A stretch of 64,000 bases of DNA from Patescibacteria group bacterium (GCA_041671325.1 JBAZBR010000004.1:4004-68003); one strand, 5' to 3'; counted from the first letter of the stretch, positions 6,040-62,601 are shown. The notes: generated by a model from the sequence alone, not told the origin. Translations and numbers: made by a program.

Positions 6040-6393
6040 TTATCCCGCGGCCTGGACCACGTTTTTGAAAACCGTGGAAAACAAAGTCCAGGAAACAATT
6101 ACCAAAAACATGCCAATGACTGCGCCGATAAGCAGTTTTCGGGAGTGCGTTTCCGAGTCTTCATTACCCCCAGCGGTAATCTTAACTATAATGCCGTAAA
6201 GGAGCATGACCGTTGAAACAACCCCGATTATGCCCAGAACCACGTTGGCAATACTGAAAAGGAAAGGCTTGATATCCAGCGTGTAAAGATTGGCTTGGGG
6301 CCCAATATTTTCCGTGGTAGTAGCCGCGACAATACGGGGCGATAAGTTGATTAATAAAGTAATTAAAAAGGGAAAGTATTTCTTTAGTTTCAT
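6040..6393 (-). CDS. VirB2/TrbC-like (type IV secretion-type) pilin family protein, divergent paralog
   Basis: Signal peptide, then two hydrophobic helices, with the AGGNED core shared with the next three genes. Confidence 0.45.
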   Translation of the reverse strand: MKLKKYFPFLITLLINLSPRIVAATTTENIGPQANLYTLDIKPFLFSIANVVLGIIGVVSTVMLLYGIIVKITAGGNEDSETHSRKLLIGAVIGMFLVIVSWTLFSTVFKNVVQAAG

Positions 6394-6459
6394 TTTTTAG
6401 ATAAAGCTTGGTTTACATAAAAAAGCCGTCAAAGTCGGTTTAGGCTTGAACAGAAAAAC

Positions 6460-6822
6460 TTAGTTAGTGACTTGGGCGGTCGTCTTTAGAACAAAGTTGA
6501 CGATTGCCCAAGAAAGCAGGACGACTATCAGGCCAACGACTGCCGAAGAGATCAGTCTTTTGGCCGTATCAGTTTTGTCCTCATTGCCGCCAGAAGTTGC
6601 CAAGGAAAAAACACCGTAAAGAATTACTACTAAGGCGATTAAACCCAATAAACCCAGAATAAAGCTAACAACATTCAAAATAGTTTGTTTCAGGTCTGTG
6701 GAAGTAAAACCCAGCGAGCCGGCAAAAGTCGTGTCAAAAGACACGGCCAAAGCCATGGCTGGCAGGGCTATAACGGTTAAGCTTATTAAGGTAGCAAAAA
6801 GGTATTTGTTAGGTTTTTTCAT
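6460..6822 (-). CDS. VirB2/TrbC-like pilin family protein (paralog 2)
   Basis: Signal peptide ending ...AMALA, then VSFDTTFAGSLGFTSTDLK, two TM helices and a GGNEDK motif. Confidence 0.5.
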   Translation of the reverse strand: MKKPNKYLFATLISLTVIALPAMALAVSFDTTFAGSLGFTSTDLKQTILNVVSFILGLLGLIALVVILYGVFSLATSGGNEDKTDTAKRLISSAVVGLIVVLLSWAIVNFVLKTTAQVTN

Positions 6823-7200
6823 TTATAATCCGCTTGGGCTCCCGGCTACTTGGTTGGCTGTTTTAAGCACAAAATTCACGATTGCCCAAGCCAGCAAGAC
6901 AATAACCAAACCAACTGAGGCTGAAGAAATTATCTGTTTGGCTTTGTCTACTTTGTCCTCATTGCCGCCTGCAGTCATCCAAATAAATCCAGCATAAAGA
7001 ATAAAGACAACGGCAATCAAGCCCAAGAGGCCTAAGACGAAGGTAATAACATTCAATACGGCCTGTTTTAAGTCTACCGAGGTAAAACCCAGCGAGCCGG
7101 CAAAAGTCGTGTCAAAAGACACGGCCATGGCAGCCATTGGCAAGGCTAGGCTAATTAATGACAAACCGAGAGCGGCAAGGTGTTTGTTAGTAAGTTTCAT
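6823..7200 (-). CDS. VirB2/TrbC-like pilin family protein (paralog 3)
   Basis: Same architecture. More than 70% identical to its neighbours in the VSFDTTFAGSLGFTS...LLAWAIVNFVLKT core. Confidence 0.5.
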   Translation of the reverse strand: MKLTNKHLAALGLSLISLALPMAAMAVSFDTTFAGSLGFTSVDLKQAVLNVITFVLGLLGLIAVVFILYAGFIWMTAGGNEDKVDKAKQIISSASVGLVIVLLAWAIVNFVLKTANQVAGSPSGL

Positions 7201-7305
7201 ATACCCTTATATTAACGCAATTTGCCGGAGAATTACAATAGCTATTACTAAAAACCCCCAGGTTTTAGCCGAAAGGGTTTTTAGTTTAATTAATAATTAT
7301 GTTAA

Positions 7306-7674
7306 TTAGGCGGTCACTTGATTGGTAGTCTTCAACACGAAGTTGACGATCGCCCAAGCCAGCAAAACCACAACTAAACCGATACAAGCTGAAGAAATGA
7401 TTTTCTTAGCTGAATCAACCTTATCTTCATTGCCACCCGCAGTCAGCCAGATAAAGCCACCGTAAAGAATCATGATAACCGCGATCAAGCCCAAGAGGCC
7501 TAATACAAAGGTAATCACGTTCAAAATCGTTGCCTTCAAATCAGTTGAAGTGAAGCCCAATGAACCGGCAAAAGTAGTATCAAAAGACACGGCTAAAGCC
7601 GCTATTGGTAAGGCCATTACACCCAGGGTTGCAGCGGTTGCAATTAAATATTTTTTGTTTAATTTCATAAACAC
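7306..7674 (-). CDS. VirB2/TrbC-like pilin family protein (paralog 4)
   Basis: Same architecture as the previous three genes. Confidence 0.5.
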   Translation of the reverse strand: MFMKLNKKYLIATAATLGVMALPIAALAVSFDTTFAGSLGFTSTDLKATILNVITFVLGLLGLIAVIMILYGGFIWLTAGGNEDKVDSAKKIISSACIGLVVVLLAWAIVNFVLKTTNQVTA

Positions 7675-7865
7675 ACCCCCTTTCCGATTTTTCGGTATAT
7701 TAGTCTAATCTAATTAAATCTTAGCTTATTTTGCTTAAAAGTCAAAGCTTTTAAACAGGTTATTGTACGCTTATTCAGAAAATAAATCAAGCCCCCAGGT
7801 TATTAGGGAAAAGTGGTAAAAAAATGAGTTTTTTGTCTTAACTTAGCTAAAAATTAGGATTTTAG

Positions 7866-8100
7866 GGTCCCCGTAAATCAGGCGCGCAAGCCCGCGAAAG
7901 CGGGATGAGCACGGATTTACGGGGAGAGGGGCACACTAATAGGGTCCCCACGAACGAGTAGCGGACCCCGCGGCCGCGGGGGAGTACGCATCTGCGGGGA
8001 GAGGGGCACTAAAAGGCTTTCTAAGAATAGGGGTCCCCATAAACGTGGCACGGAGCGGAGCGAGTACGCGTTTATGGGGAAAAGCGGCACATTTGTGGAG
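7866..8100. repeat. Three tandem ~77-88-nt hairpin units with conserved GGGTCCCC and GGGGAGAGGGGCAC flanks
   Basis: Unit stems are CCCCGTAAATC/GATTTACGGGG and CCCCATAAACG/CGTTTATGGGG; the middle unit is degenerate. The array lies in a divergent intergenic region, and the overlapping minus-strand ORF 7917-8114 looks spurious. Confidence 0.5.
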
Positions 8101-8324
8101 TCTGGAGTGGCCAAACGTTCAGTTTGGACACGAAAGGCGGAACAAATGTTGACGCGTGCGCCGTCGCGCCGTCGCGGTTTTATCGTGGATAACTCGGCCT
8201 TTTTTTGCCAAAACCTGTGTTAGCCTTAATTTAGTCAGTAAACAAACGCCATTCATTTCAATCCTGGAAAGGAGGTGAGTGGCATAACTAAAACCGTTCT
8301 TTTTAAACTGAAAGGAGAATCCAA

Positions 8325-20731: not shown

Positions 20732-20884
20732 TGTCATCCCGAGCCTTGCCGACCTGCCCGCCGAACTAGCATGGTCCAGCCTTCGCAGCCGCTTCGGCGG
20801 AGTAGGCCAGGCGGGGGGATCCCGATAAGATAACCCGAGATTCCCCCACTCGCCCTCGAAGACTCGGGCTCGATCGGAATGACA
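20732..20884. repeat. MITE/REP-like imperfect palindromic element (TGTCATCCCGAGCC...GGCTCGATCGGAATGACA)
   Basis: The terminal inverted repeats were read directly. The internal GACCTGCCCGCC motif is shared (as a reverse complement) with the elements at 27025 and 35837. Confidence 0.55.
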
Positions 20885-26867: not shown

Positions 26868-27010
26868 GTCCCTCTCCCTCTGGGAGAGGGTGCCGGAGGC
26901 GGTGGTGCCTGCCCGCCGTACTTCGTCTGGCGAAGGCAGGCGGGAGGGTTACTCGGAAATACAAATTATATCGTGAACCTCACCCCAGCCCTCTCCTATA
27001 TAGGAGAGGG
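26868..27010. repeat. Hairpin-pair repeat element (CCCTCTCCCTCTGGGAGAGGG ... CCCTCTCCTATATAGGAGAGGG)
   Basis: Two matching GGGAGAGGG-type hairpins bracket a GC-rich core. The overlapping ORF 26835-27044 is probably spurious. Confidence 0.45.
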
Positions 27011-27024
27011 GGATTTTAATTACG

Positions 27025-27208
27025 TCATTGCGACCCCGACGTAAGTCAGGGGAAGCAATTTTTTGGATTTGTCATCCTGAATCAACCAAATGGCGGATGA
27101 AGGATCTTTATAAATATTGTATTTATGAGGATTCTCCCGCCTACCTCGCCAAGGCGAGTTCAGTGGGCAGGTCGTCGTCCGACGTACGTCGGAACTCCTC
27201 AGAATGAC
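27025..27208. repeat. MITE/REP-like palindromic element (GTCATTGCGACCCCGACGTA...TACGTCGGAACTCCTCAGAATGACA)
   Basis: The terminal inverted repeats and the internal CTCGCCAAGGCGAG and GGGCAGGTCG motifs are shared with other copies. Confidence 0.5.
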
Positions 27209-35836: not shown

Positions 35837-35998
35837 TGTCATTGCGAGCGACTCCGCCGCCGCGGGGAGGAGTGCGGCAGTCTCAAAAGAAATGGGAGAT
35901 TGCTCCCGCCTGGCCTACTCCGCTGAAGCGGCTGCGAAGGCTGGACCTCGCCAAGGCGAGTACGGCGGGCAGGTCGTCTCTGCCTACGGCAGATCCTC
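35837..35998. repeat. MITE/REP-like palindromic element (TGTCATTGCGAGCGAC...GATCCTCGCAATAACA)
   Basis: Terminal inverted repeats plus the CTCGCCAAGGCGAG and GGCGGGCAGGTCG core shared with 27025 and 20732. Confidence 0.55.
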
Positions 35999-36044: not shown

Positions 36045-38042
36045 TTAGTAGCGCCTTTTCCTTCTCCTGACCCGTGGTTGGCCTTCGCCCTGCAATAATT
36101 TAATTTGGTCCCGGATATTCGCAGCTTTTTCAAAATCCAAATTCTGGGCCGCTAAACTCATTTGGTTTTCCAAGTCTTTCAAGACATAAGGGATTTCTTC
36201 CTTTGGAACTTTTTGCGGATTAAAGATTATTTTTTCCTCCTCAGCCTTTTTACCGGCTAAACGGGATTCCCGGATGGCTTTAATAATGGTTTTTGGCGTA
36301 ATGCCGTGTTTAGTATTGTAGGCGGTTTGGATTTTCCGTCGGCGTTCAGTTTCGGAAATGGCAGATTTCATGGCTTTGGTAATTTTGTCGGCATACATGA
36401 TGACCTGGCCTTCCACGTGCCTGGCGGCCCGGCCCATGGTTTGGATCAAGGCCATGTCAGATCTTAAAAAGCCCTCTTTATCCGCATCCAAAATTGCCAC
36501 CAAGGAAACCTCAGGCAAGTCCAAACCTTCGCGCAATAAATTAATGCCCACCACCACATCAATTTCGCCAGTGCGCAAAGTTCTTAAAATTTCCAAACGA
36601 TCAAAAGTTTCCACATCTGAATGCAGGTATTGCACTTTGATATCCAAGTCTTTCAAATAATCAGTCAGATCTTCGGCAATACGTTTGGTCAGTGTTGTTA
36701 CTAAAACCCTTTGGCCTTTTTCAACCCGAGCGCGGATTTGTTCCAGCAAATCATCAACCTGATGCTTGGTTGGTTTGACTTTGATCGCGGGGTCGAGCAA
36801 ACCCGTGGGCCTAATCAATTGCTCAGCAATTTTTTGACTATGGATTTTTTCATATTCCCGCGGGGTGGCAGAAACAAAAATCACTTGGTTAAGCCTTTTT
36901 TCAAACTCGGCAAATTTTAATGGCCGGTTGTCATAGGCCGCGGGCAAGCGGAAGCCGTAATCAACCAAAGTTTTTTTGCGCGCCTTATCGCCTTCATACA
37001 TGCCGCCAATTTGCGGCACGGTCATGTGGGATTCGTCGATGAATAATAAATAATCCTTGGGAAAAAAGTCCATCAAAGTGTAAGGCGGCGTGCCAGGAGC
37101 GCGGCCGTCAAAATAGCGGGAATAATTTTCAATGCCCGAAGTAAAACCAGTGGTGCGGATCATTTCCAAATCAAAATTGATACGCTGTTGCAACCTTTCG
37201 GCTTCCAATAATTTACCGTTGGCCTTGAACCAAGCCAATCTTTCTTTCAAATCCTTCTCAATTTGCAACAAAGATTTCTCCATACCCTTGGGGTCGGTGA
37301 CATATTGGGTGGCTGGGTAAATATCAACCTGGTCCAGTTTAACCACGTTTTTCCCAGTCAAGGAATCCACTTCTTCAATTTTTTCAATCTCATCACCGAA
37401 AAAATAAATTTTGTAAAGCCGACTTTCGGAAAAGCTGGGAAAAATTTCCACCGTATCACCCAAAGCCCGGAAAGAGCCGCGCCAAATGTCCAAGTTCCTT
37501 CTTTCAAAATGCATGGCTACCAATTTATTAAGCAAGTCTTGGCGTTTTAAAGTCTGGCCTTTTTTCAAAGTGATGCGACCTTTTTGGTATTCAGCCGGCG
37601 AACCCAAACCATAAATGCAAGAAACCGAAGCCACGATTATCACATCGCGGCGGGAAAGGATGGCTTGGGTGGAAGCGTGGCGCAAGCGGTCAATCTCTTC
37701 ATTAATATCCGTTTCTTTTTCAATGTAAGTGTCAGTCTTGGGGATGTAAGCTTCGGGTTGGTAATAGTCGTAATAGGAAACAAAATAATGCACGGCATTT
37801 TTAGGGAAAAAGTCCTCAAACTCGCTGGCCAGTTGCGCAGCCAGGGTTTTATTGTGGGAGATAATCAAAGTCGGCTTTTGGGTTTTTTCAATGACCTTGG
37901 CCATGGTAAAGGTTTTGCCAGAGCCAGTCACGCCCAAAAGCGTCTGGCCTTTGAAACCAGAATTTAGACCTTTGACCAATTTTTCAATGGCCTGCGGTTG
38001 ATCGCCAGTGGGTTTGAACGGTGCCTGGAGTTTAAATTGCAT
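36045..38042 (-). CDS. uvrB: Excinuclease ABC subunit B
   Basis: GVTGSGKTF Walker A, a helicase domain, and a C-terminal UvrB/UvrC interaction helix (...IRDQIKLL). Confidence 0.9.
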
Positions 38043-38207
38043 AAATATAAAGGGGTTGGCCTGCCCCGTACCCGACCCCGAGCTTGGCGAGGGGGAGTGG
38101 TATGGGGTCGCCAGTTGGCTTAAATGGCGCTTGAAGAATAAATTTACCCATAGATTATTGAAGTATTGGTCAAGTGGTATAATAGAGTCAAGTAAAGAAA
38201 ATTCAAA

Positions 38208-38660
38208 TTGCTATTTAAAAAGGAGAGTGAAATGAGTGGTAACAGGCAGTCTTTGTTACGCATGCCCTATTGGTTTTATGCGGCGGTTGAAATCATTTTT
38301 TATTGGCTAGCGATGGTAAACTTATTGATTATATGTGGGTTGGGGTTTATTAATAACCCCTCACAAATGCTGGTGTGCCTCTTGGCTTTTTTGCCAATGT
38401 TTATTGCGATTGTGCTGTTAATAAGAATGGTCAAGACATGGAATATTTGGGCTAAGCACTGGCGCAAACCGGCTTTACTCCTCTTAGTAGTATTTAATGT
38501 TTACTGTATAGTTTCGGGCCAGAGCTGGGTAACCGATTGGCCAATGATGCGAACAATCTTGTTATTGTCAGCGATGTTGCAAGTGATTACTTTTCTTATT
38601 CTGAATCGGTTGGTCAAGTGGTTACCAGAGGGCTGGCGAACTCAGATACAATTAATTTAA
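38208..38660 (+). CDS. Multi-TM membrane protein (hypothetical)
   Basis: Four predicted TM helices. Confidence 0.4.
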
Positions 38661-38799
38661 GGCTTTTTTCAATTTGACCTCATCCGCTGGATGAGGTCAT
38701 TTTTTAGTTTCACGGGTTTGAAAGGGGCTTGGAGTTTAAATTGCATAAGTTCAACTGGGTGGTTATAATATTAATACATTTAAATTTAACATAAAAATA

Positions 38800-39207
38800 A
38801 TGTCTATTCTAAAAATATATCAGGAAAAAGCTAATATCTTGAAAAAAAATAATACTTTGTTAGTTATTTGGCTTGTCATATTAATGTGGAACATCGTGGG
38901 TATTGTTGTTACTGTTGTGGGAATGATAGGATCTTTACCGGATTTTGCTCCAAAGGATGTTGGAACTGCAGAAATTATCACAGGCGTGGCAACCATGCTG
39001 TTTTTAACTTTATTATTAGGTATCGCGGTTATTATCGGAGTGTTTAATTTAAAAAAATGGACAATTAGCTTACTTGGTTTATTAGCAATACTGGGCTTAA
39101 TTAGTCTTAATATTATTACAATTCTTACGGGGGTTATTCAATTTGGCCTTTACTGGTATTTGTATAAGGAATACCAAAAACTGACGGGTGATAGCCGGTT
39201 GGTTTGA
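38800..39207 (+). CDS. Multi-TM membrane protein (hypothetical)
   Basis: Four predicted TM helices. Confidence 0.4.
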   Translation: MSILKIYQEKANILKKNNTLLVIWLVILMWNIVGIVVTVVGMIGSLPDFAPKDVGTAEIITGVATMLFLTLLLGIAVIIGVFNLKKWTISLLGLLAILGLISLNIITILTGVIQFGLYWYLYKEYQKLTGDSRLV

Positions 39208-39397
39208 AAGATATCTTAAGTTTAAACTTCATAAGCAAGATTCACTATACCAATGAAGCTCAATTAATAAAAGATTTTTTGTGTTCGCTTCATACCCGCC
39301 TACGCCAAGGCTTCGGCCGACGAAGGTCGGCGGGTTATCAGCCCTAGGGATTTTTTGTGGAATTAGCAAAGTCGTAGCTGGAGGCTGATAAAAATAA

Positions 39398-39440
39398 AAA
39401 ACACCCCAAGTCCTCAAACTTGGGGTGGGTTTTTGCAAAA
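39398..39440 (-). terminator. Rho-independent terminator of the minus-strand GHKL operon
   Basis: On the minus strand, CCCCAAGTTTGAGGACTTGGGG is followed by TGTTTTTTATTTTT, ten nt after the stop of the 39450 gene. Confidence 0.6.
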
Positions 39441-39449
39441 AGAGCTAAA

Positions 39450-41075
39450 TCAATCAAAAGCGCCAATTAGTCTCATCCAGTAATGCTGGAATAACCGGTC
39501 AAAGGCTTTTCGCTCAGTATCGCTGTCAGTGAATTGCATAGCGATTTCTTTGCACAAATGCCTTTGGACATAAAGGCGCAAATGCTTATCACCCCTTTCT
39601 TCAGCTTTTTGCCAATCACCATGTTCAACGTTGAAGAACACGATGCCGCTTTCAAAACGGGTGCGCCAATTATAGCCTCGGGCATCGTCAGCAGTGGCCG
39701 TTTTGACCGTTATGCCAAATTGGCTTTTAATCTCATGACGCTGATAGCCGTTTGGATGTTCAGCGCTGGAATGGGTCTTTCCGAGCCTTTCATGAGTTGG
39801 AGGTTGTTTGCCAGACCCACGACAATTCGAACGACTTCTTGCTTCTTCAATAGTCGGCGGGGTAATCCTGACTTTACCGCTTTGTATATTTCCCGCAGTG
39901 GCGCTGACATGGCTGCCAGAAACAAAACCCTTAAACCTTCCTTGAAGTTGCAAGTCGTCGTTCGCCTGGAATAAAGCATCCAGGCCTTCAACGGCTGAAC
40001 GGATGATTTCTGCGTGCTTGATCGAACGTCCACGATCCCGCACCATATCAATGTAGCCAGGGCAATATTCAGCCGCATAGGTTTGGACTGCGGTTACAAA
40101 AGCTTCAAACTGCTCATCCGGGTCAAAACCTTTTCGGTTTTGCCTCAAAGTGCAGAAATTTAAATAAATGTAGCCTTGGAAAAAGCCCGAACCTAGCGTG
40201 GGCTTTACATCGCGCCAAAGATCGCGTACCCGATACAAGTCAAATCCATCTTTGTGCTTGTGGTCAACCATAATTTTTGGGGAGCTAACTGGTTGAACAG
40301 TCGTAAACATCTGGAAGTCAACATCGCCAAAAGGGGTTGGGATGGAAACAGCACGTTGCCGTCGGCCAGGGAATTCCTGTGGCTTTGCGTCAACCACCTG
40401 TTCAGGGCCGGTAAGTGGTTTATAGACTAACCGGACAAGGGCGTTTTGACTCTTGATTTTAACGGCATACCTTTCGCCAAGATAGCTGGCAATTTCTTCA
40501 ATGCGAGCCAATTGCTTCATGGCATTGGGCATGACATCTTTCAGAATCACGCAGGTGGTTGGCTGGAAATTCCCAGGCGGGTTTTTGTAGCCAAAGCCCG
40601 GCGGCATGGTTTCAAAAACACCCTTCGGCTTGTCATTGGGGCCCTGAACCTTTTTAATCCCGGCTTTTAAAACGTGTAGCTGTATATACGGGCTGTGCGG
40701 AACGGTTAAAGACCTGGTAATCCAGGTCATTTCCCCTTTTGTTTCCGAAACCAAGAAGAGCGCGGCAATCTTATCAAGTCCTTTTTCGCCGATATCTTCG
40801 GGGTTAAACTTGTTGGTCATGCCGACATTGTTCCAGATTTTCAGCAGCTCAGCTTTGGTAGCGCCCAAGCCGTCATCCCAGCCAAGCATCATTGATCTTT
40901 TTTCATCGATGACAATAATGATATGTTTGGCTTTTTTGTCCAAAGAATTTTGGACAAGGGCGGCGATCACGTCTGAAGGGGTTTCTGCCAAGTGGGCCAA
41001 ATACCATAAGACGTTGCCGACATGGACGCCGATTTCAAACTCCTCGCGCCTGATTCCGTCTTTGGGGTTTGTCAT
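39450..41075 (-). CDS. GHKL (Bergerat-fold) ATPase-domain protein, MutL/MORC/TopoVIB-like N-terminus, 541 aa
   Basis: N-box IAALVQNSLDKKAKHIIIVI and G1-box MLGWDDGLGAT. The remaining ~400 aa are unassigned. A 4-nt ATGA overlap with the upstream gene indicates translational coupling. Confidence 0.6.
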   Translation of the reverse strand: MTNPKDGIRREEFEIGVHVGNVLWYLAHLAETPSDVIAALVQNSLDKKAKHIIIVIDEKRSMMLGWDDGLGATKAELLKIWNNVGMTNKFNPEDIGEKGLDKIAALFLVSETKGEMTWITRSLTVPHSPYIQLHVLKAGIKKVQGPNDKPKGVFETMPPGFGYKNPPGNFQPTTCVILKDVMPNAMKQLARIEEIASYLGERYAVKIKSQNALVRLVYKPLTGPEQVVDAKPQEFPGRRQRAVSIPTPFGDVDFQMFTTVQPVSSPKIMVDHKHKDGFDLYRVRDLWRDVKPTLGSGFFQGYIYLNFCTLRQNRKGFDPDEQFEAFVTAVQTYAAEYCPGYIDMVRDRGRSIKHAEIIRSAVEGLDALFQANDDLQLQGRFKGFVSGSHVSATAGNIQSGKVRITPPTIEEARSRSNCRGSGKQPPTHERLGKTHSSAEHPNGYQRHEIKSQFGITVKTATADDARGYNWRTRFESGIVFFNVEHGDWQKAEERGDKHLRLYVQRHLCKEIAMQFTDSDTERKAFDRLFQHYWMRLIGAFD

Positions 41076-41587
41076 TTATCACCCCCAGAGTTATGTCCGG
41101 AACCAAGATGTAGATGTCCCTCTTCAATCAGTGTCCGGCGGATCGTTTCCGAATTCAGAGCTCGGGCGAGGGTTGAAAACAGCTTCAAGCCATCCCCACC
41201 ACAGAGTTCACGCAACTTGTCTCGCAATGAGGAATCGGGATCTTGGGCAATGAGCTGTAAATCCGGTAACATAAGCTGGATTAACAACTGAAGCCGATTT
41301 ACTACCGTCATGTCTTTAGCAGTTGATTCTGGATAAGCGAGTAGTTTAGCCAAAGCCGTGGAAGTTGCTGGGCCATTAAAAAGCGCGTTACCAGTCAATT
41401 CAAAAAGTTTTCTTCGGTGTTTAGCTGAACGTGGGACACTCTTGCCATTCCACCATTCGGTGAAAGTGGATTTGGGAATGCCCAATCTTTGCGCCATGGC
41501 AGTCGGCCCGTCAAGCTTGAGTTGCCGCGCGCAGTTCTTCAAAATCACTGATATAGTTTTGTCCATTTTTTCGTCCTTTCTACACAT
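41072..41587 (-). CDS. HTH (XRE/Cro-like) DNA-binding protein
   Basis: MAQRLGIPKSTFTEWWNGKSVP has a helix-turn-helix pattern near the N-terminus. Confidence 0.5.
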   Translation of the reverse strand: MCRKDEKMDKTISVILKNCARQLKLDGPTAMAQRLGIPKSTFTEWWNGKSVPRSAKHRRKLFELTGNALFNGPATSTALAKLLAYPESTAKDMTVVNRLQLLIQLMLPDLQLIAQDPDSSLRDKLRELCGGDGLKLFSTLARALNSETIRRTLIEEGHLHLGSGHNSGGDK

Positions 41588-41593
41588 CAGTGG

Positions 41594-42454
41594 TTAAGAT
41601 ATTCGAACGCGTTTGGCAAGCCTGATCATGGAATCGGAGAAAACTCTGACTTGGGTGATCCTGGAAATTTCATTGGCGATTGTTACCCAGGCTTTTTTCT
41701 TAGCCCTGGCTTGGCGCAAAAAAGCCACCAAGCTAATTTTCTTTTTGACCCGTAAAATCCGGTCAGCTTTGAAGTTGTCTTTCTTCAAAATGATTTGCCG
41801 ACGGCCGAGTTGGGGCTTGGGGGTCAAAGACAGAACCTTCATCCAGGAACACAATATCCGTTGATTGACCGTTAGGACGTATTTTTCACTGATTGTTTTG
41901 GCTGCTCGTTTTTGTGATTTTTGATCAGCGTAGATGGCAGCAATAATTCTTCTGGCTTTTTTAACCCCGCCAACCCGACGGCAAAAACCACGCAAAGACT
42001 TACTCCGTGAAGGAAGGTCTTGTATAGAGGTTATTCGTCTGGGTTTTCTTGACCTTTTTCTTTTGTACCTGGATTTCAGTTTATGGAGTCTTTCCGGGCT
42101 GGTTAGCGTTTGGGCGGTTGTGCCAAAATGTATGTCCAGCACGGAAAAGCCAAGTCTTGAACTGGCGCTGGCTAGCCACACTGCAAATGCTTCATAATGA
42201 GCAAGTACAGCCAGGCCCAGATCCAAAGCGTCTTTTTCCTCGCCTTTGAATTTCGGAATATGGGTATAAAGCAGTTGCGGAGAGAGGTTGCCTTCTCGCC
42301 TGGCCGCTGAAATCAAGGTGTGCAAATCTGGATGGTCATCCAAGTAGCGATGAAAATCTTGATCGTTCATCAGGTCTTTGGTTGCGGCGAGGCTTTTACG
42401 AATAATCTCAATTGCTTTTTGCATCTTTCGGTTTTCCTTTCGTGCCCGTGCCAA
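41594..42454 (-). CDS. Highly basic hypothetical protein (286 aa, Arg/Lys-rich; nucleic-acid-binding candidate)
   Basis: Runs of KRKRSRKPRR and ARAKKKAW. No recognised catalytic motif. Confidence 0.45.
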   Translation of the reverse strand: MARARKENRKMQKAIEIIRKSLAATKDLMNDQDFHRYLDDHPDLHTLISAARREGNLSPQLLYTHIPKFKGEEKDALDLGLAVLAHYEAFAVWLASASSRLGFSVLDIHFGTTAQTLTSPERLHKLKSRYKRKRSRKPRRITSIQDLPSRSKSLRGFCRRVGGVKKARRIIAAIYADQKSQKRAAKTISEKYVLTVNQRILCSWMKVLSLTPKPQLGRRQIILKKDNFKADRILRVKKKISLVAFLRQARAKKKAWVTIANEISRITQVRVFSDSMIRLAKRVRIS

Positions 42455-42481
42455 GATTTTCTTGACGTGGACGTGATAGGG

Positions 42482-42727
42482 TTATGGTTTTATTGCTTTC
42501 CAAAAAGCCTTAATTCCATGATCTCTTTTGATCACGGCTAGCCAGCGGGCGGCCTTAGCTAAACCCGGGTCATGGGTAGATGCTAAAGCCAAACGATGAC
42601 ACTTATCCGGACTGTTGCTTTGAGCTAATCCAATTAGACTAGGTTCTTGTAAAGCCGGTTGCGCTAAGATTTTCAGCTCAGTTAAACTGTGTTTCGCGGC
42701 CACACTTTTAACTCCTTTCGTTTTCAA
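42482..42727 (-). CDS. Small hypothetical protein (81 aa), first gene of the operon
   Basis: Clean ORF. A TTGACA-17-TAAGGT promoter candidate sits about 60 nt upstream on the minus strand, at roughly 42790-42818. Confidence 0.35.
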   Translation of the reverse strand: MKTKGVKSVAAKHSLTELKILAQPALQEPSLIGLAQSNSPDKCHRLALASTHDPGLAKAARWLAVIKRDHGIKAFWKAIKP

Positions 42728-42865
42728 GTTGCGGTTTTTTTGGTTTATTTAAGAAAGCCAAAAAGCTTTCAAATTACCTTAAAATTATTACTTGAGTTTG
42801 TCAATAAATGAAAATCTGCTAATTAATAGAAAAAGCCTTAGCCTTATCAGTGCTATACTTTATCT

Positions 42866-45328: not shown

Positions 45329-45403
45329 GTCCCCATAGCTTAACGGATAAAGCGTAGGCCTCCGAAGCCTGAGATTGAGGTTCAATTCCTCATGGGGGCA
45401 CCA
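45329..45403 (+). tRNA. tRNA-Arg (anticodon CCG), with encoded CCA
   Basis: Hand-folded: acceptor GTCCCCA/TGGGGGC, D-arm GCTT-AACGGATA-AAGC, anticodon stem TAGGC/GCCTG with loop CTCCGAA (CCG), T-arm TGAGG-TTCAATT-CCTCA, then A-CCA. Confidence 0.8.
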
Positions 45404-45475
45404 GCTCGTTTCGTGCTTCACCCTGCGTGAGCGCGCTTTTCGCTTGCTCACTTCAGGTTACGCACGAAGCCTCGC
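45404..45475 (+). ncRNA. Conserved structured element immediately 3' of a tRNA (copy 2 of 2)
   Basis: GCTCGTTTCGTGCTTCACCCTGCGTGAGCGCGCTTTTCGCTTGCTCAC...GCACGAAGCCTCGC has the same nested stems as the copy at 1130-1200. A terminator-like hairpin follows at 45549-45585 (CCCCAATTTTTTATTAAAAAATTGGGG). Confidence 0.4.
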
Positions 45476-45690
45476 ATTCCCGACAAACCCGTACTCGCTC
45501 CGCTGCGTTCCTGGTTTGTCGGGTCAGGTTTCACAAACGTGTCGCTTACCCCAATTTTTTATTAAAAAATTGGGGCCCCCCGGGTTTTAGTTTGCTTTTT
45601 TATCCTTAAAGAGAGAAAATAAAAAGGCACACCCTTAAACAAATAAGGGTTTAAAGCATTACAAAATCTCAATAATTAACCAAAATAATT

Positions 45691-60744: not shown

Positions 60745-62601
60745 TTAAGTTCCGCTGTCGTGGGAAATGCTGGTCCGCATGCTGGCTGACAAGGTCAAGA
60801 TAGTCTTAAGTTTTTTCAGAGTCGTACTGCTGAAAACCAATAAGTTCGGCTGGGAGTTGCCAGCCCGACTGACCAGGATTTCCGCCTTGCCGTCATTGTT
60901 AATATCCCCAGTAGAAAGCCGGACACCGGTTTTGTCAGTTTTGGTAAAAGCGTAAAAGGATTGTTTTTGGAGTTGGAGCGTATTTAGACCGAGGAATTTC
61001 AGGATTTTAACTTGGGGTCCAAAACTTGCTCTGGGTCCTATAATGACTTCAGCTTTGCCGTCATTGTTCAAATCACCAACGGCTAAAGCATAGCCAGTCC
61101 TCAAGCCGGAAGCGTAAATTTTGGTTTTCTGGCTGATTTGCTTGAAAACTTTTTTAGTGTTTAATTGGAAAACTTTGACGGTCGGGCTGCCATTATTGAA
61201 TGGCGCGGTCAAGATTTCCGCTTTGCCGTCAGCGTTCACGTCGCCAACAGCCAAGGCAATGCCGTTTTTAAAGCTTGTTGATTCAGCATTAAATTCTTTC
61301 AGGATTTGGGTGTAGCGGCCATTTTTAAAACCATAAATCCTGACATTCGGCGAACCCTTTTGCTTGGCTGTGATAATTTCCGCTTTGCCGTCGGCATTCA
61401 CATCGCCGACCGCGATGTTCACGCCATCTTTATATTTATCGCCATAAGGCAGGAAAGTCGCCAGCCGAGAACCGTCTTTCCGGAAAATCCGAATTTCCGC
61501 TTTTCGCCCAGAGCCAGGGGCGACAATAATTTCGCCCAAACCGTCTTCGCCCAAGTCTTTCAATTTCACCTGGATCCCGCCACGGAAGGTTTTTTCATAC
61601 GCCAGGAAAGATTTAATAAGGCCGCCATTTTTATTGAGCAAAGTTACGCGCGGTTCATTTTTGCCTTCCGGACCGACGACAATAAAAATTGTCAAAGCCA
61701 CCTGGAATTCCGCTTCAGCCGGTGAAGGGTCAATATTGCCCGCCTCATCTTGGCTCCTGACTTTGAAGGTGTGCTTACCATCGGTTAAGTCTTGGTAAGT
61801 CACTCTTTTAATTGCCGTCCAGCTTGACCAAGCTTGGCTGTCCAATTTATAACTGAAAACTAGTTTTTCCGGTTTAGTGGTATCATCCAAGCCTTGCCAA
61901 GTAAAACTGAACCTGGCTGAATTCAAGTCAACCGTCGGGGCGGCCGTAATGTAAGTGTTGGGCGGAATTGAATCGCCTGTATTTTTGGAACAGATTCTGG
62001 TTTCCGCTGGTTTGTTAGTTTCCGTGCCGCAACCAGTTTGGTCCGTGCAAGTCCTGAGTTGCTGGTTGTTCTGACAGGTCAACCATTCCGTGCAATGCCA
62101 ATTTTCCACGCAGTTTGGCAGGGAGATGGAGGCGGTTTTTTTAGTGGCAATATTGGAAAGGCTGGAAACATTGCCGGCGTCATCTGTGGTTTTCAAGGCG
62201 AAGTAATAAGCCTGGTTGGGCTGCAATTGGGCGACCTGCAAACTTTCCGGGCTACCGGCAGTTTTGGGCGAGCCGACATTTGGCGCTTGGGTGGCTAAAG
62301 CCCAATTTGACTCCGTGATGGTCGCGGTGCTGTACCGGATATCGTAACTAGCGGCTTGTCCGGTATTAGCGTCATCACCTGGCGCGGTCCAGGCAAGGTA
62401 TATGGAATTTGTGTCATCAAGGGCCGCGGCTTCAACCGAAGTTATGATGTTTTGCGGAGGGTTAAAACCGTTATTGGAAGCAACAACTAAAGCCGAAAGC
62501 GCCGACCCTGCCCAAAAAGCCACGATGAATAAAGCTAAGACTGGATGAACAGTGGTTTTTTGCTTGGTTTCAGTTTGTTCTAAAAAAGTACTCGGTCGCA
62601 T
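60745..62601 (-). CDS. Secreted FG-GAP repeat (integrin-alpha-like beta-propeller) protein
   Basis: At least six repeats of GD(V/L/I)N(A/N)DGKAE(I/V), plus an N-terminal signal/TM segment. Confidence 0.7.
   Translation of the reverse strand: MRPSTFLEQTETKQKTTVHPVLALFIVAFWAGSALSALVVASNNGFNPPQNIITSVEAAALDDTNSIYLAWTAPGDDANTGQAASYDIRYSTATITESNWALATQAPNVGSPKTAGSPESLQVAQLQPNQAYYFALKTTDDAGNVSSLSNIATKKTASISLPNCVENWHCTEWLTCQNNQQLRTCTDQTGCGTETNKPAETRICSKNTGDSIPPNTYITAAPTVDLNSARFSFTWQGLDDTTKPEKLVFSYKLDSQAWSSWTAIKRVTYQDLTDGKHTFKVRSQDEAGNIDPSPAEAEFQVALTIFIVVGPEGKNEPRVTLLNKNGGLIKSFLAYEKTFRGGIQVKLKDLGEDGLGEIIVAPGSGRKAEIRIFRKDGSRLATFLPYGDKYKDGVNIAVGDVNADGKAEIITAKQKGSPNVRIYGFKNGRYTQILKEFNAESTSFKNGIALAVGDVNADGKAEILTAPFNNGSPTVKVFQLNTKKVFKQISQKTKIYASGLRTGYALAVGDLNNDGKAEVIIGPRASFGPQVKILKFLGLNTLQLQKQSFYAFTKTDKTGVRLSTGDINNDGKAEILVSRAGNSQPNLLVFSSTTLKKLKTILTLSASMRTSISHDSGT

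Follow-up and report, generated by a model that had tools for sequence, protein, structure and literature searches.

The window analysed here, a stretch of 64,000 nucleotides (nt) from a Patescibacteria group bacterium (GCA_041671325.1 JBAZBR010000004.1:4004-68003), carries a cassette of four co-directional minus-strand open reading frames (ORFs) at 39450-42727, in the interval between uvrB and ruvA. Its largest gene (39450-41075, minus strand) encodes a protein of 541 amino acids (aa) that, as modelled, is a MORC/paraMORC-type GHKL+S5 ATPase whose overall layout resembles that of MutL, and that by sequence criteria falls outside MORC proper, MutL, Hsp90 and Top6B. The cassette is an optional, accessory module confined to Patescibacteria. 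As for its function, an HTH (helix-turn-helix)-targeted MORC-like DNA clamp, encoded by a Patescibacteria-specific accessory operon, is the reading proposed here, tentatively and with somewhat less than even confidence. An earlier note on the same DNA had suggested a candidate defence or mobile-element module; the accessory and uncharacterised nature of the cassette was upheld, while neither mobility nor defence was demonstrated.

Membership of the large protein in the GHKL superfamily was established by a Pfam HATPase_c_3 match at residues 34-124, which scored 36.8 bits against a cut-off of 25 and agreed with the Bergerat-fold N-terminus read earlier by eye. The Mg-binding Asn of motif I, the DxGxG box of motif II and the Bergerat fold were all present. 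NCBI lists a copy of the protein as 'MAG: ATP-binding protein [Patescibacteria group bacterium]' (MAG, metagenome-assembled genome), and the source names of the family members are only 'hypothetical' or 'ATP-binding protein', with all named ones belonging to Patescibacteria MAGs. The extent of the family rests on an exhaustive HMMER search, in which 286 representatives at 50% identity were obtained at E<=1e-3 (124 at <=1e-10), almost all of them full length at 510-580 aa. A word-indexed homologue search had suggested a near-orphan protein, since it returned 4 clusters with the GHKL protein as query and, with the 286-aa partner, nothing but the query; when a 102-sequence profile was used in the word-indexed search, only unrelated GHKL proteins were added. 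With a tighter family profile, 0 loci were found in GTDB representative genomes and 6 in metagenomes, and viral contigs gave no match.

An AlphaFold2 monomer model was built from the 102-sequence alignment, with a predicted local distance difference test score (pLDDT) of 88.9 and a predicted template modelling score (pTM) of 0.83. The model places a GHKL domain at about residues 1-210, a beta-rich, S5-fold transducer domain at about 211-320 and a 50-residue helix at 321-371, followed by a low-confidence basic linker at about 380-445 (isoelectric point, pI, 10.5) and a small alpha/beta domain at 446-541. In a structure search, the middle domain alone matched uS9 and GHMP kinases, and thus it was assigned the S5 fold. 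Consequently, of the roughly 400 C-terminal residues that had previously been described as unassigned, about 110 are now accounted for by the transducer domain. A search of BFVD returned generic GHKL matches only (Hsp90, rIIA and topoisomerases). A His-Me/HNH reading was considered for a beta-beta-alpha element in the C-terminal part with invariant N482 and H485, and it was rejected because the first strand has no conserved His or acidic residue.

A GHKL domain followed by an S5-fold domain is the arrangement of MORC and paraMORC proteins, and the traits of the paraMORCs, namely no MORC motif and a family-specific C-terminal extension, were also found. When the sequence columns of the S5 domain were inspected for the MORC motif GhXhhpXXRhl, no conserved Gly with a conserved Arg eight residues downstream was seen; the conserved pattern was instead G297-x-F-x-G301-x-I...R314-x-x-F317. 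Moreover, Pfam MORC S5 gave no match in 14 family members. Neither the transducer domain of topoisomerase VI subunit B nor a Top6A/Spo11 partner gene was found, in agreement with the earlier note, which had recognised no MutL or topoisomerase partners.

In the family, motif I has the form E-L-x-Q-N-A-x-D, with Glu39 in 99, Gln42 in 101 and Asn43 in all of the 102 sequences, and the Mg-binding Asn43, the DxGxG box (D67/G69/G71), G96 and G99 are retained across the family. R314 of the S5 domain is likewise conserved as a basic residue (93 Arg and 6 Lys of 102). Iyer et al. (2008, PMC2292703) regarded a conserved basic S5 residue of this kind as a likely Arg/Lys finger, and R314 may act as one. 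In the window protein, the position of the catalytic Glu, four residues before Asn43, is occupied by Ala39, and the G2 box reads G96-x-x-G99-x-Asp101, where 91 of the 102 family sequences have Gly at position 101. Hence, it has neither the general-base Glu (E29 of MutL) nor an intact GxxGxG box, and the motif 'LVQNSLD' quoted earlier is a Bergerat motif as claimed, though one without the catalytic Glu. Ala39 and Asp101 also occur together in P0002, P0003 (locus L001) and L015.

The consequence of these replacements can be judged from Aquifex MutL (aqMutL), of which E29A showed no detectable ATPase and weakened ATP binding, and E29Q/E32Q also showed no detectable ATPase; a carboxylate is thus required at position 29, at position 32 or at both (PMC13614785). 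Since the window protein has Ala and Gln at the equivalent positions, ATP hydrolysis by it would be very unlikely. Purifying selection was nevertheless evident, despite Ala39: between L001 and L015, the ratio of nonsynonymous to synonymous change (dN/dS) was 0.068 for the GHKL gene and 0.038 for the GHKL domain, its most constrained part, and thus the subclade is not decaying. The subclade of the window is a derived and probably hydrolysis-deficient variant.

The gene directly upstream of the ATPase gene (minus strand, 41072-41566) encodes a Cro/C1 (XRE)-type HTH protein of 164 aa from ATG 41566, the longest ORF being 171 aa (41072-41587). Its stop overlaps the start of the ATPase gene by ATGA, as had been read before, and the two genes are translationally coupled in the window. 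The XRE-like assignment made in the earlier note was supported by a profile of 8 homologues, which matched the HTH proteins 8tac (E 8.5e-4) and 2ppx (1.1e-3) in PDB. Sub-threshold HTH matches were also obtained in Pfam, PHROGs and NCBIfam. The Cro/C1-type HTH is N-terminal and is followed by a conserved helical C-terminal domain, and a weak Pfam match to the Xre-MbcA-ParS antitoxin middle domain was recorded (E 0.016). The pairing was counted over every locus with enough sequence, which gave 8 independent loci: a homologue lies directly upstream of the GHKL gene in L002, L005, L008, L010, L015, L017 and L020, and a weaker one in L013. Therefore, the GHKL protein and the HTH protein were taken as the conserved core of the cassette. 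As a separate observation, the homologue in L001 (at about 120-127) lacks 1 nt of an A-run when compared with L015 and is shifted in frame. The shift marks a pseudogene or else an error of assembly, and the GHKL gene downstream of it is intact.

An Xre-type HTH gene coupled in this manner to a larger downstream gene also suggests a toxin-antitoxin or abortive-infection-like module, in which the HTH protein would be the antitoxin or repressor and the GHKL protein or a basic protein the effector. The antitoxin-domain match, the patchy distribution and the exchanged alleles described below fit such a module. However, the HTH matches were sub-threshold, no known toxin domain was found, GHKL+S5 is not a known toxin fold, and the operon comprises four genes, two of which encode additional conserved basic proteins. 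Such a module was accordingly regarded as improbable.

The third gene (minus strand, 41594-42424) encodes a highly basic protein of 276 aa from ATG 42424 (longest ORF 286 aa, 41594-42454). Its basic character, remarked upon earlier, was borne out by a pI of 11.0 and a net charge of +39, with residues 106-276 alone carrying a net +42. The protein has an acidic-to-neutral helical N-terminal domain, a K/R-rich linker and a basic C-terminal half with HTH-like segments, and homologues were found in L002, L005, L008 and L015. Because of this charge and of sub-threshold HTH matches in the homologues, it is considered a putative DNA-binding partner. More distant cassettes have, in its place, a MarR/TrmB-like winged HTH protein with a coiled coil (L010 and L017) or an HTH_psq protein (L013). 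Thus, the recurring scheme appears to be a GHKL ATPase, an XRE-HTH protein and a second, variable protein of DNA-binding type. The fourth gene (minus strand, 42482-42703) encodes a small basic protein of 73 aa from GTG 42703 (longest ORF 81 aa, from TTG 42727) with a pI of 10.0, and its homologues at the same operon position were found only in L002 (45% identity) and L005 (47%). All four cassette proteins are basic, and the three partners of the ATPase probably bind DNA.

Two other loci showed additional genes. In L002, a 313-aa sigma-54-activator-type AAA+ protein (7275-8216) with a C-terminal HTH_8 and without a receiver domain is encoded about 200 nt upstream of the cassette and in the same direction; the window has no counterpart, and this protein, which is unusual for Patescibacteria, may be an extra cassette component. 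The distant GHKL cassette of L013 begins with a 268-aa protein that is ParB-like by eye and has an HTH_psq match.

The cassette lies between ruvA and uvrB in the window, in L001, L002, L005-L007 and L015, and on the P0002 contig, and its proteins are about as divergent as RuvA or FemAB. The first impression was therefore one of a vertically inherited syntenic cassette, which was overturned by its absence from close relatives, by discordance and by its later divergence. The closest named relatives were found by a RuvA-profile scan of the GTDB representative genomes and comprised Candidatus Kerfeldbacteria and other Patescibacteria MAGs with RuvA 60-65% identical; the GHKL protein and all partners were absent from the locus of every one of these relatives. 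In the cassette-less L022, L023 and L026, uvrB and ruvA are 751-816 nt apart from start to start, and in L026 a single membrane-protein gene of about 220 aa lies between them. The full-length UvrB of the cassette-less L023, L026 and L024 is 78-79% identical to that of the window, whereas the UvrB of the cassette-bearing genomes is farther from it (about 75-76% for L005 and 67-69% for the others).

The phylogeny of the cassette was also discordant with that of its flanks. Among L001, L002 and L015, UvrB identity is about 87%. GHKL identity is 88% between L001 and L015 and only 34% between L002 and either of them. Similarly, the GHKL protein of the window is 51% identical to those of L001 and L015 as against 38% to that of L005, whereas its UvrB is nearer to that of L005. 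When L001 and L015 were compared, synonymous divergence (pS) was 0.54 in the cassette (80.9% DNA identity) and 0.77 in the adjacent uvrB (76.2%), and the cassette thus diverged later than the flanking uvrB. Taken together, the absence from the nearest relatives, the discordant phylogeny and the lower cassette pS show that gain, loss and allele replacement have occurred in a variable interval. The check on synteny recommended in the earlier note, that is, whether the cassette is variably present next to ruvA, therefore turned out positive.

In other genomes, the uvrB-ruvA interval holds GH77, a sigma-54-activator-like AAA+ gene, membrane-protein genes and others. In the cassette-less L024 (4623-9158), the gap contains an RNase III gene and genes for three other proteins: one of 508 aa, which is sigma-70-like and carries a long extension at its N terminus, one of 351 aa, which is ParB-like, and one of 374 aa, which is built from repeated units of about 35 aa.

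With regard to composition, the cassette has a guanine-plus-cytosine (GC) content of 47.0%, compared with a window mean of 43.0% and 33-40% in the adjacent membrane-protein genes. It is thus richer in GC than its neighbors, as had been noted, at a value just below the 48-50% given then. When the genes were compared one by one with 65 window ORFs, z was 0.55-0.92 for GC and 0.09-0.55 for GC at third codon positions (GC3). The composition of the cassette is typical of the genome and not foreign, contrary to the earlier description; the cassette appears GC-rich because the two adjoining membrane-protein genes are unusually AT-rich. No integrase, transposase or recombinase Pfam family was found within +/-10 kb of the cassette, and in a search for insertion scars around it the flanking repeats were weak and at chance level. 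Therefore, the marks of a mobile genetic element or genomic island (a mobility gene, flanking repeats and atypical composition) were lacking. The simplest guess at the mode of transfer would be that the conserved flanks allowed homologous recombination.

Beside the cassette, three direct copies of the 5' end of uvrB were observed within 38010-39246, each of about 47 nt and comprising the ribosome-binding site (RBS) and the first 11-18 codons. The true start occupies 38010-38056, and the copies at 38714-38760 and 39200-39246 (MKFKLKISFKPTGYHP) match it at 83% and 62%, respectively. These copies bracket the plus-strand membrane-protein genes at 38208-38660 and 38800-39207. In L001, L002 and L005, uvrB starts 87-114 nt past the GHKL gene. 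From the bracketing copies and this short gap, the membrane-protein genes look like successive insertions, each of which regenerated the start of uvrB. The insertions resemble integration at an att-like site, with no integrase present. Accordingly, the lineage-specific insertions with visible scars at this locus would be the two membrane-protein genes and not the cassette. A homologue of the 150-aa membrane protein (E 2e-8) is encoded at the corresponding position in L015.

As the cassette sits between two repair genes, a lineage-specific DNA-repair factor, namely a MutL-like matchmaker working with the neighboring RuvA and/or UvrB, was also considered. However, distant family members adjoin greA/aspS/mraZ, PPDK, peptidase S8/rplS and LCP/glycosyltransferase genes with no repair genes, and the nearest relatives retain uvrB and ruvA without the cassette. 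Moreover, in the window, a terminator and two genes on the opposite strand lie between uvrB and the cassette. The NCBIfam MutL models reached only 10-15 bits against cut-offs of 180-840 and covered residues 30-95 alone (motifs I-II), and neither DNA_mis_repair nor MutL_C was matched by Pfam in the 14 members. A repair role is consequently very unlikely.

On the basis of these results, a mechanism can be outlined for the proposed clamp. The ATPase would be a constitutive dimer, held together through the long helix and/or the C-terminal domain, and the HTH partners would bring it to particular DNA. Nucleotide binding would then dimerise the GHKL heads and close the clamp round the DNA, with the basic linker lining the ring, as has been described for MORC proteins and MutL, and the DNA so bound would be compacted locally, silenced or excluded. 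In Glu39 members, which make up most of the family, ATP hydrolysis would reopen the clamp. The Ala39/Asp101 subclade may instead act as a nucleotide-binding switch that does not hydrolyse or does so very slowly (a latch), or as a scaffold that needs no nucleotide. In this outline, the binding of DNA, the action as a clamp and the biological target are all inferred. There are precedents among eukaryotic proteins, since MORC2 is a DNA clamp that compacts DNA (PMC12216690) and MORC-1 of C. elegans is referred to, in a citation within PMC8277788, as entrapping DNA topologically. The patchy distribution and allele replacement incline us towards a role in conflict, such as the silencing of invading DNA. 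In its boldest form, this idea amounts to a nuclease-free immunity or silencing system of Patescibacteria, in which interchangeable HTH adaptors would load the GHKL clamp on invading or selfish DNA, to be shut down through entrapment or compaction, and the Ala39/Gln42/Asp101 subclade would form a one-way latch; we consider it speculative and rather unlikely. If true, it would be a prokaryotic functional counterpart of eukaryotic MORC silencing.

Several results weigh against the clamp and its role in conflict. No genes for superfamily II (SF-II) helicases, methylases, nuclease/restriction-fold proteins, HNH or TIR proteins were found in the cassette loci examined (the window, L002, L005, L008, L009, L010, L012, L013, L015 and L017), and the UvrB beside the cassette is the housekeeping orthologue, also present in cassette-less relatives. 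Thus, the likeness to the architecture of paraMORC-type defence that had been suggested earlier was not supported, as no recognisable nuclease, methylase or helicase effector is encoded. No defence-island context was seen either, the neighbors being housekeeping genes in every locus examined, and defence hidden Markov models (HMMs) gave no match beyond the shared GHKL core. Among the partners, the 286-aa protein had no significant match in the family libraries and nothing meaningful in a PDB profile search, and the 81-aa protein matched nothing in Pfam, PHROGs, PADLOC or NCBIfam. In addition, because aqMutL E29A weakens ATP binding, the window variant may bind no nucleotide at all. Finally, when the full model was searched with Foldseek, the top matches were full-length Hsp90, TRAP1 and GRP94 (E about 1e-13, template modelling score 0.41-0.46), with Hsp90 ranking above MORC.

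The Foldseek result raises the alternative of an Hsp90-like chaperone or protein-remodelling ATPase with the small partners as co-chaperones or clients. The second acidic residue of motif I is non-acidic in the family (Gln42), as it is in Hsp90, which has Ser there (PMC13614785), and R314 of the middle domain could parallel the catalytic-loop Arg of Hsp90. The protein showed neither the N-terminal, middle and C-terminal domains of Hsp90/HtpG by sequence nor a full-length superposition, and a chaperone was judged very doubtful indeed.

As no effector, defence-island context or defence-HMM match was found, endogenous regulation stays a serious rival to the clamp acting in conflict. Here, the cassette would be a lineage-specific module of nucleoid organisation or transcription control that regulates or compacts a portion of the host chromosome, with no role against phages or mobile DNA. 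The housekeeping flanks in every locus, the strong purifying selection and the genome-typical composition are in keeping with this explanation, and eukaryotic MORCs are silencing and compaction factors (PMC12216690). However, the closest relatives have no cassette, and the alleles at this locus differ greatly even between genomes with 87% UvrB identity. Such a pattern is unusual for a gene that regulates core functions and more typical of diversifying or frequency-dependent selection. A purely endogenous module was therefore considered possible but on the whole unlikely, and the HTH-targeted clamp was retained as the working interpretation.

The operon layout was further defined by a 158-kb metagenomic contig, ENA ERZ27249449 k141_1535300, part of which is identical to the window. 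The four packed minus-strand genes were found as ORFs where they had been placed earlier, and the public gene calls on the identical contig use shorter starts, which give 164, 276 and 73 aa as compared with 171, 286 and 81 aa for the longest ORFs. The shorter starts agree with RBS-like sequences at ATG 41566, ATG 42424 and GTG 42703, the last of which is preceded by AGGAG.

A candidate sigma-70-type promoter at 42776-42804 (minus strand) consists of TTGACA at 42804-42799, a 17-nt spacer and TAAGGT at 42781-42776, in the 139-nt divergent intergenic region common to the operon and ruvA. The sequence is present as the earlier note described it. Its -35 element is perfect, whereas its -10 element has only 3 of 6 positions in common with TATAAT and did not reach the threshold of the scan. 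It may serve as the operon promoter. At the end of the operon, the intrinsic terminator hairpin read previously was recovered at 39402-39427 (minus strand) as an 11-bp stem with 6 G-C pairs, followed by a T-run (TTTTTTATTT). This hairpin is bidirectional and also reads as a terminator for the plus-strand membrane-protein gene opposite.

Past the terminator, a GC-rich palindromic element with no assigned strand occupies 39296-39334, which had been described as a fragment of a repeat family at 39295-39334. Its CCCGCCT...CGGCGGG ends are common to the copies at 26908-26933 and 27143-27176, whereas no near-identical copy within 3 mismatches was found; its fold z-score is -1.2. It is probably a divergent copy of the repetitive extragenic palindromic (REP)-like repeat of the window and outside the function of the operon. 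The GC-rich palindromic REP-like repeats of the window are intergenic, stand out in a genome that otherwise has 43% GC, and were located at 20750-20815, 26908-26933, 27143-27176, 35905-35978 and 39296-39334; the long copies are 98% complementary (20773-20815 vs 35905-35947), and the short copies have the CCCGCCT...CGGCGGG ends in common. An Rfam scan of 35-46 kb of the window gave nothing besides tRNA.

Other features were observed elsewhere in the window. Two segments of about 100 nt, at 1103-1206 and 45377-45481, are 80-85% identical and run downstream from the 3' ends of tRNA-Leu (1045-1129) and tRNA-Arg (45329-45403), which are different genes with a common downstream sequence. Four tandem minus-strand genes of 117-125 aa at 6040-7674 form a small paralogous array, with three copies of about 300 nt at 70-74% identity (6465-6764, 6843-7142 and 7311-7610). 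Moreover, a 618-aa minus-strand ORF at 60745-62601 contains at least four 66-nt segments spaced every 162-168 nt (60869-61432), which points to a repeat-domain protein.

The genomes of Patescibacteria (the candidate phyla radiation, CPR) are very small, and most of the accessory genes in them lack annotation. A family annotated as 'hypothetical' or 'ATP-binding protein' has now been resolved into a defined operon with a confident fold assignment, in which a MORC-like GHKL+S5 ATPase is tied to HTH proteins and not to the helicases, methylases or nucleases of known prokaryotic MORC/paraMORC systems. If the DNA clamp is real, MORC-type silencing machinery would operate in bacteria without a nuclease, and the hydrolysis-competent (Glu39) and hydrolysis-deficient (Ala39) members would provide a natural pair for mechanistic comparison. 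If the cassette is only a lineage-specific regulator, its value would be modest and chiefly annotational.

The cassette was finally compared with known systems. PADLOC, Pfam, NCBIfam and PHROGs yielded nothing specific for the gene combination, which agrees with the earlier statement that it matched none that could be recognised. In the literature, no paper linking GHKL proteins with Patescibacteria and none on the NCBIfam 'carph-isopro' domain was found. MORC2, MORC3, SMCHD1 and the prokaryotic MORCs share 13-15% sequence identity with the cassette protein. MORCs have an acidic residue in motif I where the cassette family has Gln, and the CW, SMC-hinge and chromatin-reader domains of MORC/SMCHD1 are missing from the cassette protein, in which the MORC S5 motif is not recognisable. 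With regard to MutL, no MutS partner was present in any locus, and the cassette is accessory, not core.

Sacsin-like GHKL domains typically have motif I in the form ELxQNAxD, and 6 of the 14 family members matched Pfam SACS. Up to 10 of the 14 matched PADLOC TmtA (best E 2.4e-9), which is a likeness to Tiamat. Identity with Tiamat was rejected, as the matches span about 65-110 residues of the GHKL core against profiles of 1300-1780 positions; moreover, the window protein itself had no TmtA match, and the architecture and operon are entirely different. VcSduA (GHKL-Shedu/paraMORC3) is a protein validated in phage defence that has an N-terminal GHKL ATPase and a middle domain resembling a clamp, and these are proposed to control a C-terminal effector (PMC12137116). 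Unlike the cassette, it functions as one gene on its own, and its C-terminal domain is a PD-(D/E)xK DUF4263 nuclease. No PADLOC or Pfam match to Shedu/DUF4263 was obtained, and no E-D-ExK pattern was seen among the conserved C-terminal columns.

Among the systems described so far, the nearest is the paraMORC radiation, families 1-5, of Iyer, Abhiman & Aravind (2008, PMC2292703), which the cassette protein resembles as a prokaryotic GHKL+S5 protein with no MORC motif, its own C-terminal extension and a sporadic distribution; for the paraMORCs, that distribution was taken to suggest lateral mobility. The paraMORCs, however, are recognised largely by their operons with SF-II helicases, DNA methylases and restriction-fold/HNH/TIR effectors, whereas the partners in the cassette are HTH and basic proteins and the C-terminal domain has no nuclease motif. 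Therefore, it was concluded that what is new here is a paraMORC-like family whose set of partners had not been described, and within it a subclade that is naturally deficient in hydrolysis.

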